A DNA stretch of 64,000 nt from a virus (taxonomy: Duplodnaviria > Heunggongvirae > Uroviricota > Caudoviricetes): IMG/VR virus record IMGVR_UViG_2721755662_000004; one strand, 5' to 3'. The position numbers and the translations under genes were made by a program. This document shows positions 15,520 to 18,061 of the stretch, piece by piece. How positions within the stretch are numbered: the first letter of the stretch is position 1; every line of letters begins with the position of its first letter. Under the pieces are notes generated by a model. That model worked only from the letters and a program-made list of their open reading frames with translations. It did not search any database and was not told the DNA's origin.

Positions 15520-15793
15520 TGACAACGTCGCGTGTTCGGGGCTATATTCCTCACGCGCCAGCAAAACCTGGCGTCGGGATTAGCACCCCGGATATCGAAA
15601 CGGTGCATAACCGCGCTGGCGGTTTTTTTATGCGCTAAGCACAGTCACATTCGCGATTTATGGCGGGCTGTGTGGGGGAGCCGAAAGGCTCGCCGGATGT
15701 TTCGACCGGTAGTGCTAACCCCGCACAGTTCGCCACCACGATGATTAGCACCTGACGGTGGCGAGGTAAAAATTATCGAAACGCGAGGTCATT
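15520..15793 (+). promoter_or_regulatory. Conserved structured leader A (promoter-like start, internal hairpin plus T7, then ant gene)
   Basis: Shares blocks TTCGGGGCTATATTCCTCACGCGCCAGCAAAA, GGGCTGTGTGGGGG, CACAGTTC.CCACCA with leader B; internal terminator-like CCGCGCTGGCGG+T7 near 15611-15629. Confidence 0.35.
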
Positions 15794-16459
15794 ATGGCTG
15801 TTCAAATTTCTGTCGAAAACCTTTCCCCTGTTACCTATAACCAGATCCCCGTAATTACTACTGAACTGTTGGCTCACCTTTACGGAACAAAAATCAAAAA
15901 CATTTCTGATAACTTTCTGAACAACACGACGCGATTCATGCCCGGAAAGCATTACTTTAAAATTGAAAAAAACGAATTACGCGAGTTTAAGAACAGACCC
16001 GAAACAATCGGGTTAGTTGGTAAAAATGCCCGCTCCCTCATCCTCTGGACAGAACGCGGCGCAGCCCGTCACGCAAAAATGCTCGAAACCGATCGGGCGT
16101 GGGAGGTATTCGAAAAACTGGAAGACTGCTATTTCAGCCAGGGAAAAACAGCACCAACCGAACAGCAGCCGCAGATTCAGCCACAATTCACAGCCGAAGA
16201 AATCATCCTCCTTTGCTACATGCAGCTCTGGATGGAAAAAGCCCAGGACATCAGCAAACACCTGTATCCCATTATGAAAGAGCTGAACTCCTCATACACG
16301 AACAAGCTGTATGACATTGCGTTTGAGACCATCTACATGGTGACGAAGAACAGAGACGCGCTACTGAGGGAGGTAACACGTCTCGACATGTCAAGTTCCG
16401 TTATCCAGCGGGCCATGCCAATGCTGAAAAGCCTGCGGGCAAGACAATTTGAATTCTGA
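15794..16459 (+). CDS. Antirepressor-type protein (N-terminal DNA-binding domain plus ANT/KilAC-like C-terminal domain)
   Basis: 221 aa; C-terminal 98 aa identical to C-terminus of 59909..60538 product. Confidence 0.7.
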   Translation: MAVQISVENLSPVTYNQIPVITTELLAHLYGTKIKNISDNFLNNTTRFMPGKHYFKIEKNELREFKNRPETIGLVGKNARSLILWTERGAARHAKMLETDRAWEVFEKLEDCYFSQGKTAPTEQQPQIQPQFTAEEIILLCYMQLWMEKAQDISKHLYPIMKELNSSYTNKLYDIAFETIYMVTKNRDALLREVTRLDMSSSVIQRAMPMLKSLRARQFEF

Positions 16460-16463
16460 AACT

Positions 16464-16487
16464 AAAGGAGCTTCGGCTCCTTTTTTG
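16464..16487 (+). terminator. Intrinsic terminator
   Basis: GGAGC-TTCG-GCTCC plus T6. Confidence 0.6.
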
Positions 16488-16513
16488 TTGGGAAAATCCA
16501 GTGAGAGGGAATA

Positions 16514-16924
16514 ATGAACCAGACTATCTTCCTCCGAAGTAAGCAGCAGCAACAATTCGCCATTAACGCCATCCTTGCAACAACTCTCGATAAAGACAAA
16601 CCCGTTACGATCCGCATCACCGATTACAAGCGGAATCTCGATCAAAATGCCAAATTTCACGCGATGGTCGCTGATATCTCCCGACAGGTTCAGTGGTGCG
16701 GCAGATGGCTAAAACCAGAACAGTGGAAAGTTTTGTTAATCAGCGGTCATGCCGTGGCGACAAAACAGGAAGCTGATGTTTTGCCTGGTCTTGAAGGTGA
16801 ATACGTCAATATCCGCGAAAGCAGTGCGCAGATGAGCGTGAAGCGTATGGCAAGCCTGATTGAGTACACAACTTCCTGGGCTGTGGAGCAGGGTGTCAGA
16901 TTTACCGACAGGAGGTATGAATGA
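16514..16924 (+). CDS. ninB: NinB (Orf family recombination mediator)
   Basis: 136 aa; collinear with lambda NinB ([32 protein letters not shown]). Confidence 0.85.
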
Positions 16925-17103
16925 GACGACAGCGACGAAGCATTACCGATATAGTCTGTGAAAACTGCAATTACCTTCCAACGAAACGTTCCAGAAATAA
17001 ACCCAGGCCAATCCCAAAAGAATCTGACGTTAAAGCCTTCAATTACACGGCTCACCTGTGGGATATCCGGTGGCTAAGACATCGTGCGAGGAAAACAAGG
17101 TGA
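16921..17103 (+). CDS. ninE: NinE
   Basis: 60 aa [60 protein letters not shown], lambda NinE-like. Confidence 0.8.
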
Positions 17104-17109
17104 TTGACG

Positions 17110-17377
17110 TGATGATTTATTCGGGGCTATATTCCTCACGCGCCAGCAAAATCTGGCGTCGGGATTGGCGTCCTGGATAGAGACCGCGACAGATACACGC
17201 CGCGAGCGTGTTTTTTATTGTCGTATGCACGCGCACATCTGAATTATGGTGGGCTGTGTGGGGGCGGAGAGATCCGCGCCGGTCGGTTTCCCGGTTACGC
17301 CAACCCTGCACAGTTCACCACCAGACGATTGGCGTCGTCGGTGGTGAGTTATTAAGAAACCACTCGAGGGCGTCATT
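17110..17377 (+). promoter_or_regulatory. Conserved structured leader B (paralog of leader A)
   Basis: Same conserved blocks; internal hairpin CACGCCGCGAGCGTG plus T6. Confidence 0.35.
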
Positions 17378-18061
17378 ATGACAACTCAAATCTCTGTTGA
17401 AACACTCTCCACGATTACTTACAAGCAGATCCCCGTTATCACTACCGAACTTTTGGCGCACCTTTACGGCACAGAAGCTATTCGTATTCGCCAGAATCAC
17501 CACGAAAACAAAGGTCGTTTCATTGAGGAAAAACACTTCTTCAAACTTGAAGGTGAAACTTTACGTGAGTTCAAGCACAGAGTAGCTTTTAACTACTCTG
17601 TGAAAATTGCCCGTAACGTTCGCTCCCTCATCCTCTGGACAGAACGAGGCGCAGCCCGTCACGCCAAAATGCTAGAAACCGATCAGGCGTGGGATGTGTT
17701 CGAAAAACTGGAAGACTGCTATTTCAGCCAGTGCGAGAAAAATACTGGCAAACAAGAGAAGAAGCCCAACGGGCTTTCCGCAAAAGAAACAGACAGCCTT
17801 GTATGGCTGTGGGATTATGCCAACCGCTCACAGGCATTGTTCCGTGAGTTGTATCCCGCATTAAAACTGATTCAGTCTGGCTATTCCGGCATATGCCACG
17901 ACTACGGCTATGAGTTCTCGTATATCATCGGGAGGGCGAGGGGCGTTTTAATTAATCACACGCGGGATATAGATATTTATGAGCCTGACGGGCCGACGAA
18001 CCTTCTGGCATGGGAAAGGCTTAAGAACAAAGAGTTGCCGCCTTCACTGCATCGCTACTGA
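17378..18061 (+). CDS. Antirepressor-type protein (paralog of 15794..16459 N-terminal domain, different C-terminus)
   Basis: 227 aa; shares [33 protein letters not shown] with paralog. Confidence 0.65.

Follow-up and report, generated by a model that had tools for sequence, protein, structure and literature searches.

Two genes, ant1 and ant2, are located in the nin region of an E. coli prophage on the stretch of DNA analysed here (64 kb in full, hereafter the window), and each of them is preceded by a long leader. The locus raised the question of what these leaders encode. The first-pass annotation had described both genes as antirepressors with about 260 bp of non-coding sequence, in which conserved blocks are shared, before the start codons at 15794 and 17378, including a GC hairpin and a T6-7 run about 100 nt in. 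Two readings had been offered, namely a regulated attenuator or a short RNA sharing its promoter with a read-through ant mRNA in an IsrK-type arrangement. Based on all analyses, it is very probable that leader and ant gene together make up, in each of the two cases, a stand-alone cassette for antisense immunity of the P1 immI / Gifsy-1 isrK type.

RNA elements of the two leaders

The leaders were delimited as 15519-15793 and 17104-17377, ~274 nt each, with 82% mean column identity in the alignment. Ungapped repeat blocks were found at 15535-15594 / 17120-17179 (92% identity), 15655-15696 / 17241-17282 (79%) and 15706-15738 / 17291-17323 (82%). The blocks quoted previously were all located: TTCGGGGCTATATTCC... 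at 15535 and 17120, GGGCTGTGTGGGGG at 15666 and 17252, and CACAGTTC.CCACCA at 15724 and 17309. The hairpin was found at 15609-15624 followed by T7 in leader 1 and at 17195-17211 followed by T6 in leader 2, that is, about 90-105 nt into each leader. The description of the leaders was thereby borne out.

Three Rfam families (c4-a1b1, isrK and C4 antisense RNA) were matched in each leader, all above the gathering score, with covariance-model E-values between 7.5e-9 and 2.3e-14 when computed over the full 64 kb. The order of the elements was the same in both modules: promoter, IsrK-type RNA (a1, b1), C4 (b', a'), a2, b2, ant gene and terminator. The features of module 1 were as follows.

15519..15548 (+), promoter-like site TTGACA-18-TATATT, 11/12 matches: -35 TTGACA 15519-15524, 18-nt spacer, -10 TATATT 15543-15548
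15542-15594 (+), c4-a1b1 match overlapping the IsrK-type RNA, 47.4 bits (gathering 46.7)
G15555 (+), predicted start, 7 nt past the -10, from base-for-base alignment with Gifsy-1 IsrK numbering
15555..15629 (+), IsrK-type short RNA, Rfam isrK 74.3 bits (gathering 50)
15580-15586 (+), a1 UUAGCAC, loop of hairpin CGGG/CCCG, from complementarity to a' and covariation
15595-15601 (+), b1 UCGAAAC, from complementarity to b' and covariation
15609-15624 (+), stem of the predicted short-RNA terminator, T-run up to 15631 (terminator scan)
15662..15737 (+), C4 antisense RNA, Rfam C4 (RF01695) 75.1 bits at 15656-15740 (gathering 45)
15699-15705 (+), C4 b' GUUUCGA, hairpin-2 loop
15712-15718 (+), C4 a' GUGCUAA, junction
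15745..15788 (+), target region in the ant1 5'-UTR, from pairing with C4 and covariation
15745-15751 (+), a2 UUAGCAC, a':a2 7/7
15776-15782 (+), b2 UCGAAAC, b':b2 7 nt
15794..16490 (+), ant1 including terminator, 221 aa, ORF6N and P22AR C-terminal domains
16464-16483 and T-run (+), predicted intrinsic terminator of ant1, end of cassette 1

The corresponding features of module 2 were the following.

17104..17133 (+), promoter-like site TTGACG-18-TATATT, 10/12 matches: -35 TTGACG 17104-17109, 18-nt spacer, -10 TATATT 17128-17133
17127-17179 (+), c4-a1b1 match overlapping the IsrK-type RNA, 50.5 bits (gathering 46.7)
G17140 (+), predicted start, from alignment with Gifsy-1 IsrK numbering
17140..17216 (+), IsrK-type short RNA, Rfam isrK 75.5 bits (gathering 50)
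17165-17171 (+), a1 UUGGCGU, from complementarity to a' and covariation
17180-17186 (+), b1 GAGACCG, from complementarity to b' and covariation
17195-17211 (+), stem of the predicted short-RNA terminator, T-run up to 17217 (terminator scan)
17248..17322 (+), C4 antisense RNA, Rfam C4 66.7 bits at 17242-17325 (gathering 45)
17284-17290 (+), C4 b' CGGUUUC, hairpin-2 loop
17297-17303 (+), C4 a' ACGCCAA, junction
17315-17322 with 17340-17347 (+), post-C4 hairpin, UCACCACC with GGUGGUGA
17329..17370 (+), target region, z = -3.72 for 17311-17384, pairing with C4
17329-17335 (+), a2 UUGGCGU, a':a2 7/7
17356-17361 (+), b2 GAAACC, b':b2 6 nt
17378..18105 (+), ant2 including terminator, 227 aa, ORF6N and P22AR C-terminal domains
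18078-18099 and T-run (+), predicted terminator of ant2, end of cassette 2

Judged by the covariance-model matches, the initial ~75 nt of both leaders represent a full-length Rfam isrK RNA (RF01394). Model positions 1-77 were covered in both leaders, including the 3' terminator hairpin and U-run, and the same terminators were found independently by the terminator scan, ~75 nt downstream of the predicted start. The earlier proposal of a short RNA sharing its promoter with the ant mRNA was right, in a more literal sense than had been meant. No promoter was predicted between the terminator and C4, promoter-like sites being found only upstream of a1/b1.

More than half of each "leader" was accounted for by a C4 antisense RNA gene and its target sites. 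Model positions 1-87 of C4 were covered in both leaders, and the MFE fold computed here equalled the Rfam consensus fold in both modules. The module 1 C4 had a 17-bp outer stem around two hairpins (MFE -49.1 kcal/mol, z = -5.95), and the module 2 C4 gave -44.5 kcal/mol (z = -4.21). The conserved blocks GGGCTGTGTGGGGG and CACAGTTC.CCACCA were the two strands of this outer stem. The 3' end read GCCACC in module 1 and CACCACC in module 2, followed by A, and resembled a tRNA acceptor. The predicted mature ends of the module 1 C4 (15662 and 15737) were set by analogy with the P1 c4 annotation.

Downstream of C4, b2 of module 1 ended 2 nt before the Shine-Dalgarno GAGG (15785-15788) and 11 nt before the ATG at 15794. 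The module 2 b2 lay 4 nt upstream of its Shine-Dalgarno GAGGG (17366-17370) and 16 nt before the ATG at 17378; this pairing, of just 6 bp and 4 nt from the Shine-Dalgarno, was weaker than in most relatives. The repeat GATTGGCGTC was present at 17163 and 17327 of module 2. In module 1, a hairpin with a2 in its loop would result if GGUGGCG (15757-15763) paired, as it can, with CGCCACC (15731-15737) in the 3' strand of C4. In the window, b1 and b' were complementary over 7 nt in module 1 and likewise in module 2, where one of the pairs was G-U.

The domains of both proteins agreed with their earlier designation as antirepressors. The ant2 product shared 67% identity with Gifsy-1 AnrP over 126 aa (the N-terminal ORF6N domain) and 48% with ant1. 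Each ant gene had a Shine-Dalgarno at normal spacing, and an icd-like ORF between b2 and ant was found in neither module.

Covariation of C4 with its flanking sites

A covariation-aware alignment of homologous leaders had been suggested as a check, and in it C4 covaried with its flanking sites in four pairings (with a1, b1, a2 and b2). The relatives comprised 69 unique related modules, 68 of them with an a1, and the C4 fold was common to all 69. The match between a' and a1 was 7/7 Watson-Crick in 68/68 modules possessing a1, and a':a2 was 7/7 in all modules except one recombinant. The b':b1 match was 7-9 nt (5 nt in one truncated module), and b':b2 was 6-12 nt in all modules except one (4 nt). 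The b2 match usually ended 6-11 nt before the ATG, inside the Shine-Dalgarno, and b2 overlapped the Shine-Dalgarno itself in most relatives.

This complementarity was maintained across 7 a-types and 23 b' loops, some of them near-identical, in 29 combinations. When partners were permuted, 0/2000 permutations reached the observed complementarity for a1, a2, b1 or b2. Pair counts were taken from a 28-sequence alignment, in which a1:a' and a':a2 were 100% paired with 4/7 pairs changed on both sides; pairing fell to 27-53% in a strand sliding control. The C4 outer stem was 100% paired with 8/17 pairs compensatory, hairpin 1 had 4/5 compensatory pairs, and the post-C4 hairpin was 95.9% paired. For the downstream region, cognate and non-cognate targets were not told apart by RNAduplex energies computed on long segments.

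These results bear on the reading of the leader as a simple cis-acting transcription attenuator, whose terminator would be toggled through refolding, by a leader peptide or by a ligand, with the conserved blocks as parts of that switch. Both leaders do carry a convincing intrinsic terminator ~75 nt past the predicted start, and in Gifsy-1 partial read-through was observed and IsrK in trans gave an 8-fold rise of a transcriptional fusion (PMC4825925). However, the conserved blocks past the terminator form the stable independent RNA C4 (z = -5.95 and -4.21) and not, as far as could be seen, an antiterminator. No antiterminator pairing covarying with the terminator was found, C4 covarying instead. 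By eye, no conserved pairing excluding the terminator hairpin recurred across a-types, and the partial complementarity of a1 to the terminator 5'-flank in modules 1 and 2 was absent from the other a-types. No riboswitch or leader family was matched in Rfam. The attenuator is considered very unlikely, and that part of the earlier proposal found no support.

The IsrK-type RNAs might instead act mainly in trans through Hfq on host or other-prophage mRNAs, the C4 match being secondary. Rfam lists the family under the name "isrK Hfq binding RNA", and for EHEC there is ample documentation of prophage sRNAs that have host targets (review). On the other hand, variation in the short RNA was confined to a1 and b1. 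These tracked the cognate C4 in 29/29 specificity types, which is unexpected for a seed against a conserved host mRNA. A host target for an isrK RNA was unreported in the literature covered. Such a main role, which would be compatible with the antisense cassette, was regarded as unlikely.

Modules 1 and 2 themselves had different a and different b sites, and all three partners carried the matching changes. Between the two modules, complementarity was 4/7 at a, and at b it consisted of runs of 3-5 nt. Because the a and b sites differ with compensatory changes, each C4 should control only its own ant, and from these sequences no cross-regulation between the two cassettes should occur. The b sites also differed within each multi-cassette locus in which all modules were typed (this window and the loci L025, L081 and L093).

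The exact tandem pair was rare, since only 9/5426 complete E. coli genomes covered at least 80% of the 2.6-kb query, and the prophage was rich in accessory genes, both as expected if one or both cassettes were decaying, functionless duplicates. Against this, both copies kept a promoter, a terminator, the C4 fold, four sites (a at 7/7), an intact ant ORF and a 3' terminator, and the differences between them were compensatory rather than random. Each single cassette was also widespread, with a match in 2398/5426 complete E. coli genomes and copies 98.9-100% identical in Stx phages. Decay was considered extremely improbable.

Comparison with described immunity systems

The novelty implied earlier was not upheld, as three Rfam families cover the arrangement of leader and C4, which is the already known P1 immI / Gifsy-1 IsrK design. 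The statement that the element is unannotated held for RefSeq/PGAP at the identical locus of FORC_069 but failed for Rfam, which lists both C4 and isrK. Rfam annotation of C4 and isrK (x2) was given for E. coli O157:H7 EDL933 in 2014, and APSE phage records contain an annotated isrK-C4 pair upstream of a BRO gene. In this window the described design is present in two copies that differ in pairing specificity.

A close parallel was described in Salmonella Typhimurium by Hershko-Shalev et al. (2016, PMC4825925), namely the isrK - orf45/STnc1160 - anrP locus of the Gifsy-1 prophage. It contains the same three Rfam elements in the same order and aligns base for base with both leaders, and the stable RNA STnc1160, seen by the authors downstream of IsrK, sits at the C4 match. 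The a-type UUGGCGU / ACGCCAA is shared with module 2. When module 2 is counted from 17140, G28 and G31 fall in a1, and C159 and C162 fall in a' as C17298 and C17301. The Gifsy-1 pairs G28:C162 and G31:C159 (helix b-I, ~130 nt apart), proven there by compensatory mutation (PMC4825925), thus correspond to G17167:C17301 and G17170:C17298 of module 2, and module 1 carries compensatory substitutions there. The b-type is different in Gifsy-1 (loop UCGGUGAU; b2 AUCACCGG overlapping GGAGG). Gifsy-1 has one cassette downstream of Q, whereas this prophage has two upstream of Q.

In Gifsy-1, over-expressed IsrK released AnrP translation; IsrK in trans raised it ~140-fold, and IsrK with G28A or G31A gave no rise (PMC4825925). 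The a1 mutations G28A and G31A in cis raised basal AnrP 23- to 55-fold (PMC4825925). The authors explained activation by refolding around the upstream ORF and not by C4 titration (PMC4825925). Both Hfq binding and trans-activation of antirepressor translation by IsrK are known from the Salmonella experiments only (PMC4825925).

[quoted passage not shown] It was demonstrated experimentally in Gifsy-1, including orf45 stop- and start-codon mutants (PMC4825925), and an AUG was found at the 5' edge of C4 in 69/69 modules (15660 and 17246 in the window). However, this AUG also lies within the conserved UUAUGG flank of C4. The 45-codon Gifsy-1 ORF ends in ATGA on the anrP start, whereas the window ORFs, of 31 and 33 codons, have no ATGA overlap and stop at 15755 (38 nt short of the ant ATG) and 17347 (30 nt short). 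In the set of 69 modules the ORF was 14 to 61 codons long and did not keep one frame with respect to ant, and each ant in the window has its own Shine-Dalgarno. In addition, Gifsy-1 double mutants restoring a1:a' failed to restore repression (224 and 327 units versus 4 units in the wild type), the outcome to be expected if a' needs a2 as a further pairing partner, a2 having been left unmutated there. The published model in its exact form was judged rather improbable for these leaders, though less so than the other alternatives.

The C4-based cassette resembled P1/P7 immI (a1-b1 - c4 - a2-b2 - icd - ant) in the order and spacing of the sites in the P1 record, with the a sites complementary to the C4 junction and the b sites to the hairpin-2 loop. 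In P1, b2 is at the ribosome-binding site of the first ORF and ends 10 nt before its ATG (11 nt in module 1). The P1 matches to C4 and c4-a1b1 exceeded the gathering thresholds, whereas isrK in P1 remained sub-threshold (35 bits versus gathering 50) and the element in the b1-c4 interval was not called by the terminator scan. Further differences were icd, which lies between b2 and ant in P1 and is required for ant expression while ant directly follows b2 here, and the unrelated, larger P1 Ant protein. The P1 record also has a C1 operator in the promoter region. A precedent for the difference between modules 1 and 2 is the heteroimmunity of P1 and P7, which is due to a few bases in a'/b' (review).

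In P4 immunity (seqA - CI RNA (seqB) - seqC) an antisense RNA is likewise cut from the leader and pairs with one upstream and one downstream site, and IsrK was called a structural homologue of SeqA (P4) by the Gifsy-1 authors (PMC4825925). In P4, however, the effect is that transcription of replication genes stops prematurely, with no antirepressor under control; no P4 genes were found in this window. In APSE phages of Hamiltonella defensa, GenBank records place an isrK ncRNA and next a C4 ncRNA, for which putative a' and b' regions are marked, directly in front of a BRO-family gene, and the APSE authors noted matches to the region upstream of this gene. The letters are swapped relative to the P1 record (hairpin loop a', junction b'), there is one cassette, and the downstream protein has a Bro-N and not an ORF6N N-terminal domain.

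Two sRNA-Xcc1 (RF02221) modules with the same cassette logic were also observed in the window at 59-61 kb. They comprised a promoter, a short terminated leader, a structured RNA that has two hairpins besides a long outer stem, and then an antirepressor gene. The RNA 3' end was ...CACC in copy 1 and the Rfam consensus and ...CGCC in copy 2, and the variable hairpin and junction were complementary to the leader and to the Shine-Dalgarno region of the downstream gene. The family is a different one, outside the C4 clan, and no isrK, c4-a1b1 or C4 similarity was found in these modules at E <= 5. In the literature sRNA-Xcc1 was described as a trans-acting virulence sRNA.

Proposed mechanism and significance

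It was proposed that a sigma-70 promoter would be active in the lysogen and that most transcripts would end at the intrinsic terminator ~75 nt in, giving the short RNA. Read-through transcripts would carry C4 with its long stem, two internal hairpins and tRNA-like ...CCACC(A) 3' end, from which C4 would probably be excised by RNase P. The location of promoters only upstream and the acceptor-like 3' end are consistent with co-transcription of C4 and its target and with such release. C4 would then pair through a' (junction) and b' (hairpin-2 loop) with a2 and b2 in the ant 5'-UTR. The ant gene would remain untranslated because b2 is directly against the Shine-Dalgarno, and the message would probably then be terminated or degraded. 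The short RNA, with exact copies of both target sites, would if abundant compete for C4 and free ant translation.

Experimental evidence comes from homologues only: from Gifsy-1 for promoter activity, read-through, pairing of a1 with a' and trans-activation, and from P1 for repression through a2/b2. Both cassettes would be active in the E. coli prophage analysed here. The proposed decoy function of the short RNA leaves part of the published Gifsy-1 data unexplained. The a1:a' pairing in cis must also aid repression in some way, since G28A and G31A in cis raise basal AnrP, whereas loss of a competitor in cis would be expected to lower it. On the comparative data, the published IsrK model should be extended by the pairing of C4 with a2/b2 at the ribosome-binding site of ant.

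More tentatively, and at somewhat less than even chances, we proposed an addressable two-site RNA switch. The IsrK-type leader would be the cognate decoy (anti-antisense) of the C4 from the same promoter, and ant would be freed only when the short RNA/C4 ratio rises. The a and b sites would form a combinatorial address allowing several ant switches to stand side by side in one prophage or polylysogen without cross-talk, and sRNA-Xcc1 would be a second RNA family on the same principle.

For annotation, ~270 nt before many prophage antirepressor genes would be read as two RNA genes with their target sites, and not as an unknown attenuator or coding sequence; several phage records place a "hypothetical protein" across C4, as in orf34 of VT2-Sakai. 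The natural non-matching a/b addresses are a candidate collection of orthogonal RNA repressor/decoy pairs. Because cassettes 98.9-100% identical are found in Shiga-toxin phages, this antirepressor control bears on prophage induction and toxin release.

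RNA elements and layout of the two cassettes

The antirepressor genes ant1 and ant2 were preceded by leaders of ~274 nt each (15519-15793 and 17104-17377) with 82% mean column identity in an alignment. As the first-pass annotation had described, both leaders were conserved and carried a hairpin with a T-run upstream of the gene; the shared ungapped repeat blocks were 92% (15535-15594 and 17120-17179), 79% (15655-15696 and 17241-17282) and 82% (15706-15738 and 17291-17323) identical. Strong promoter-like sites were found at the start of leader 1 (TTGACA-18-TATATT, 11 of 12 matches) and leader 2 (TTGACG-18-TATATT, 10 of 12). 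The window was scanned with Rfam at gathering thresholds, and all three families were detected in both leaders.

Features of the leaders and cassettes
15542-15594 and 17127-17179, plus strand: c4-a1b1 (RF03163)
15555-15629 and 17140-17216, plus strand: isrK (RF01394), full length, terminator included
15609-15631, plus strand: G+C hairpin and T7 of leader 1
17195-17217, plus strand: G+C hairpin and T6 of leader 2
15656-15740 and 17242-17325, plus strand: C4 antisense RNA (RF01695)
16464-16483, plus strand: intrinsic terminator ending ant1
18078-18099, plus strand: intrinsic terminator ending ant2

The earlier interpretation was partly right: the leaders were IsrK-type, as the isrK matches showed, but C4 had been missed. 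The second and third conserved blocks of that annotation formed the two sides, 5' and 3' respectively, of the C4 outer stem (17 bp). The claim that the element was not annotated held for RefSeq, where only proteins were recorded over the 2.6-kb region, but not for Rfam, whose families cover it. The C4 segments, when folded alone, adopted the Rfam consensus shape of a long stem around two hairpins and a single-stranded junction, with energies of -49.1 kcal/mol for C4-1 (z = -5.95 against shuffles) and -44.5 kcal/mol for C4-2 (z = -4.21).

Pairing sites of modules 1 and 2, plus strand
15580-15586 and 17165-17171: a1, in the short RNA
15595-15601 and 17180-17186: b1, in the short RNA
15699-15705 and 17284-17290: b', hairpin-2 loop of C4
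15712-15718 and 17297-17303: a', junction of C4
15745-15751 and 17329-17335: a2, in the ant 5'-UTR
15776-15782 and 17356-17361: b2, in the ant 5'-UTR
15785-15788 and 17366-17370: Shine-Dalgarno sequence
15794 and 17378: ATG of ant1 and ant2

Since each ant gene had its own terminator, the repeated unit was the whole autonomous cassette (15519-16490 and 17104-18105). Both downstream ORFs encoded ORF6N and P22AR C-terminal domains, and Ant1 and Ant2 were 48% identical. The genes for NinB and NinE lay between the cassettes, and those for a KilAC antirepressor, YbcO, RusA and Q followed cassette 2. The window derived from a prophage in the E. coli chromosome. Nine complete E. coli genomes, FORC_069 and ML35 included, carried the 2.6-kb region at 100% identity, and parts of it were found in 2398 of 5426 complete E. 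coli genomes, with a median of 2 and a maximum of 11 matches per genome.

A 57-aa GTG ORF at 17208-17381, equivalent to orf34 of VT2-Sakai (locus L002, 1803-1976), covered C4 completely, together with the terminator tail, and was rejected as most likely spurious. Coding sequences were placed over C4 in several other phage records too, and these gene calls are most likely spurious.

A toxin-antitoxin moron cluster (13503-15514) was located directly 5' of cassette 1:
13503-13677: sok match of a hok/sok-type locus, with hokD in RefSeq
14226-14720: Fic/Doc toxin
14771-15088, minus strand: HTH antitoxin, with a RelE/ParE-type toxin upstream on the same strand

In addition, a full-length STnc100 match (165 bits) was recorded at 20467-20672 on the plus strand, ~340 nt 3' of the Q antiterminator gene (19595-20128), where one would expect a short transcript of the PR' type, such as lambda 6S RNA or StxS.

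Complementarity of the sites among related modules

A scan of IMG/VR for a 14-mer of the C4 stem gave 120 loci, in which BLAST against the two leaders identified 93 modules (69 unique, 70-100% identical to the window copies). The sites were taken by alignment column; parsing of MFE folds was unsuitable for some relatives, in which hairpin 2 was extended. Seven a-types (UUAGCAC, UUGGCGU, UUGGAAC, UUGGACU, UUGGUCU, UUAGCAG and UUCGCAU) were distinguished among the 69 modules; the different b' loops numbered 23, and 29 a/b combinations occurred. The a' site was complementary at 7/7 positions to a1 in all 68 modules having a1, and to a2 in all but one, the recombinant L050; an apparent a' exception in L093_5131 was a one-column alignment offset. 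The b' loop was complementary over 7-9 nt to sequence immediately 3' of a1 (5 nt in one 5'-truncated module) and over 6-12 nt to the stretch just 5' of the ant start, with the exception of one module, L097 (4 nt). In most types the latter stretch, b2, took in the Shine-Dalgarno purines, e.g. GUACGGAG, CUAAAAGG, UAAGAGGGA and CGCAUACGGAGG, and ended 6-11 nt before the ATG.

As a control, partners were shuffled among 29 representative modules and Watson-Crick complementarity was scored. The observed values were reached in 0 of 2000 permutations for each of the four site pairs (observed versus permuted means: a1, 7.0 and 5.35; a2, 6.9 and 5.29; b1, 7.2 and 3.68; b2, 7.9 and 4.14). When 28 diverse modules, Gifsy-1 among them, were aligned independently with MAFFT, the a1:a' and a':a2 helices were 100% paired, with both partners substituted in 4 of 7 pairs and a lone substitution in none, and sliding one strand by 1-3 columns lowered the pairing of the a helices to 27-53%. 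Compensatory pairs also gave good support to the C4 outer stem (8/17), C4 hairpin 1 (4/5) and IsrK hairpin 1 (6/6).

Neither address was shared by the two copies of the window, and every partner carried the corresponding change: a'/a were GUGCUAA/UUAGCAC in module 1 and ACGCCAA/UUGGCGU in module 2, and b'/b were GUUUCGA/UCGAAAC and CGGUUUC/GAGACCG and GAAACC, respectively. Cross-complementarity amounted to 4/7 at a and to runs of 3-5 nt at b. When G-U was counted, a' of C4-1 formed seven "pairs" with the module 2 site, three of them wobbles; hence specificity was scored on Watson-Crick pairs only. Through these three wobbles, C4-1 could act weakly, and in one direction only, on module 2. RNAduplex energies of long C4 segments with IsrK were -32.1 and -33.8 kcal/mol for cognate and -23.5 and -26.0 kcal/mol for non-cognate combinations, whereas for the module 1 downstream region they were equal (-20.8 and -20.9 kcal/mol) because conserved stems dominate the energy, and Watson-Crick counts at the sites were used instead. 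Three other loci had several typed modules (two in L025, two in L081 and four in L093), among which the b sites always differed, while the a site may be shared.

Locus L093, an IMG/VR contig, contained four tandem IsrK-C4-ant cassettes ~855 bp apart (~2280-5135, minus strand of the locus). All four b' loops were distinct and three a-types were present (UUAGCAG twice, UUGGCGU and UUCGCAU), the most extreme case seen of multiple addresses in one element. The module of L050 (~6398-6688, minus strand of the locus) was recombinant: a1 and a' were of the UUGGCGU type and b1 matched b', whereas the downstream a2 (UUGGAAC) and b2 (GUACGGAG) belonged to other types. The L050 C4 should not repress its downstream ant gene.

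Proposed mechanism and likeness to P1 and Gifsy-1

In the best-supported reading, the mechanism of P1 has been transferred to an antirepressor gene of the lambdoid type, and we consider the overall architecture and the C4 repression step very probable. A constitutive promoter would give mostly a ~75-nt terminated RNA, and read-through would yield C4. In P1 the 5' end of C4 is made by RNase P, and a ...CCACC-A 3' end, suited to this enzyme, was conserved in the window C4. The released C4 would pair with a2 and b2, thus blocking the ribosome at ant. The short RNA carries the same two sites, a1 and b1, and may therefore compete for C4, a decoy step to which we give even chances.

The P1 GenBank record (locus L125) lists a1, b1, c4, a2, b2 and icd in this order. 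Its sequence shows UUUGACA as the a sites, complementary to the junction of C4, and GUUAGUG as the b sites, complementary to the hairpin-2 loop; 10 nt separate the end of b2 from the icd ATG. The window modules had the same parts, order and spacing, with ant where P1 has icd. A sub-threshold isrK match (35.1 bits, gathering 50) was observed in P1 between b1 and c4 (L125, 23231-23312); it included a U-run and a hairpin whose loop is 12 nt, uncalled by a simple terminator scan. Hence the terminated leader seems to be an old feature of the design, stronger in the lambdoid versions than in P1, and a terminated a1b1 leader may be ancestral to immI.

The same three Rfam elements were present in Gifsy-1 of Salmonella Typhimurium, between Q and the antirepressor gene anrP, in DNA alignable with both window leaders throughout, and Ant2 shared 67% identity with AnrP across the N-terminal domain (126 residues). 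When G17140, which lies 7 nt past the -10, was taken as position 1 of module 2, the positions reported for Gifsy-1 (Hershko-Shalev et al. 2016, PMC4825925) fitted: G28 and G31 were 17167 and 17170 in the UUGGCGU heptamer (17165-17171), C159 and C162 were 17298 and 17301 in ACGCCAA (17297-17303), and the "first AUG of orf45" at +107 was ATG 17246, at the 5' edge of C4. STnc1160, a stable RNA downstream of IsrK likened by those authors to P4 CI RNA, was located where C4 is.

In that study (PMC4825925), several of whose results agree well with the mechanism proposed above, over-expressed IsrK raised AnrP translation ~140-fold, IsrK with G28A or G31A was inactive in trans, and G28:C162 and G31:C159 were proven by compensatory mutation. 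The a' mutants C162U and C159U were derepressed 120- to 230-fold, and the double mutants restoring a1:a' (G28A+C162U and G31A+C159U) stayed derepressed (224 and 327 units versus 4; Table 1D). Since a2 was left unmutated and no longer matched the mutated a', this outcome is the expected one; in our analysis of the published values, it supports a required a':a2 pairing, absent from the published model. Mutations of a1 in cis, however, raised the basal level to 93 and 218 units (PMC4825925), which does not agree with a pure decoy, and the cis a1:a' helix must also add to silencing, as its authors proposed.

Translational coupling was shown in Gifsy-1 for a 45-codon ORF from the C4-edge AUG, which ends in ATGA on the anrP start (PMC4825925). 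In contrast, the corresponding window ORFs ended 38 and 30 nt before ant, and among the 69 modules this ORF varied from 14 to 61 codons with a changing frame, while both ant genes had their own Shine-Dalgarno sequence. Therefore, orf45-type coupling is not general in the family, whereas b2 at the ribosome-binding site is. A conserved leader peptide from the C4 AUG was likewise rejected, as neither length nor frame was conserved, and the ORF was not taken as a protein-coding gene. An antiterminator role was considered because a1 of modules 1 and 2 was partly complementary to the 5' flank of its own terminator, but, on inspection by eye, this complementarity did not track a1 in modules of other types, and the pairing was rejected as an antiterminator.

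The C4 outer stem has a possible alternative partner for its 3' strand in the segment after C4 (GGUGGCG at 15757-15763 and GGUGGUGA at 17340-17347); this pairing would put a2 in a hairpin loop and compete with the C4 stem in the unprocessed transcript. This helix was 95.9% paired with two compensatory positions in the 28-sequence alignment, and folding gave z = -3.72 for 17311-17384 and -0.74 for the module 1 equivalent. The alternative helix is plausible but weakly supported, since the covarying changes may come from few events.

sRNA-Xcc1 cassettes and relation to known systems

Two further tandem cassettes (59022-60810, minus strand) had the layout of the C4 cassettes with sRNA-Xcc1 (RF02221) replacing C4:
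60808-59909 and 59900-59022, minus strand: the two cassettes
60664-60579 and 59785-59696, minus strand: sRNA-Xcc1
60538-59909, minus strand: antirepressor gene, AntA and P22AR_C
59654-59022, minus strand: antirepressor gene, Bro-N and P22AR_C

In each, a promoter-like site was followed by a leader of ~70 nt with a hairpin and T6 at its end, then by the sRNA and the antirepressor gene. Through its hairpin-2 loop and junction, sRNA-Xcc1 could pair with the leader as well as with the Shine-Dalgarno region of the gene that follows (in module B, UCGAAAG and UGAACAC in the leader, CUGAACAC and AUCGAAAGGA downstream). Across 83 distinct IMG/VR modules this self-complementarity was above all 5000 partner permutations (7.7 versus 5.68 nt upstream and 7.2 versus 5.43 nt downstream). 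A model search of the window sRNA-Xcc1 modules gave no isrK or C4 similarity at E <= 5, so any relationship to C4 would be structural or functional, beyond these models. In the literature examined sRNA-Xcc1 is treated as a trans-acting virulence sRNA; the sequences suggest that it forms a second family of antisense regulators that, like C4, are transcribed together with the antirepressor genes they control.

By eye, the P22AR_C half of the AntA-type protein (59909-60190, minus strand) was almost identical in DNA to the C-terminal half of Ant1 (16170-16459, plus strand). The N-terminal domains differed (AntA and ORF6N), which suggests that antirepressor genes controlled by different RNAs have exchanged domains.

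This kind of system is already known, as are its E. coli members. Rfam listed C4 and isrK (twice) for O157:H7 EDL933 in 2014, C4 is listed among the sRNAs of STEC genomes, and in APSE phage records a BRO gene is preceded by an annotated isrK and then a C4 with its a'/b' regions. Module 2 was found in the Stx phage VT2-Sakai at 98.9% identity, and the module 1 C4 at 100% identity in the Stx phages Stx2a_F451, JLK-2012 and phiXuzhou21. In the literature examined on these systems, we found no survey of a/b address diversity, no statement of differing addresses in tandem cassettes and no C4:a2/b2 pairing built into the IsrK model. These three points extend a known system and do not amount to a new one.
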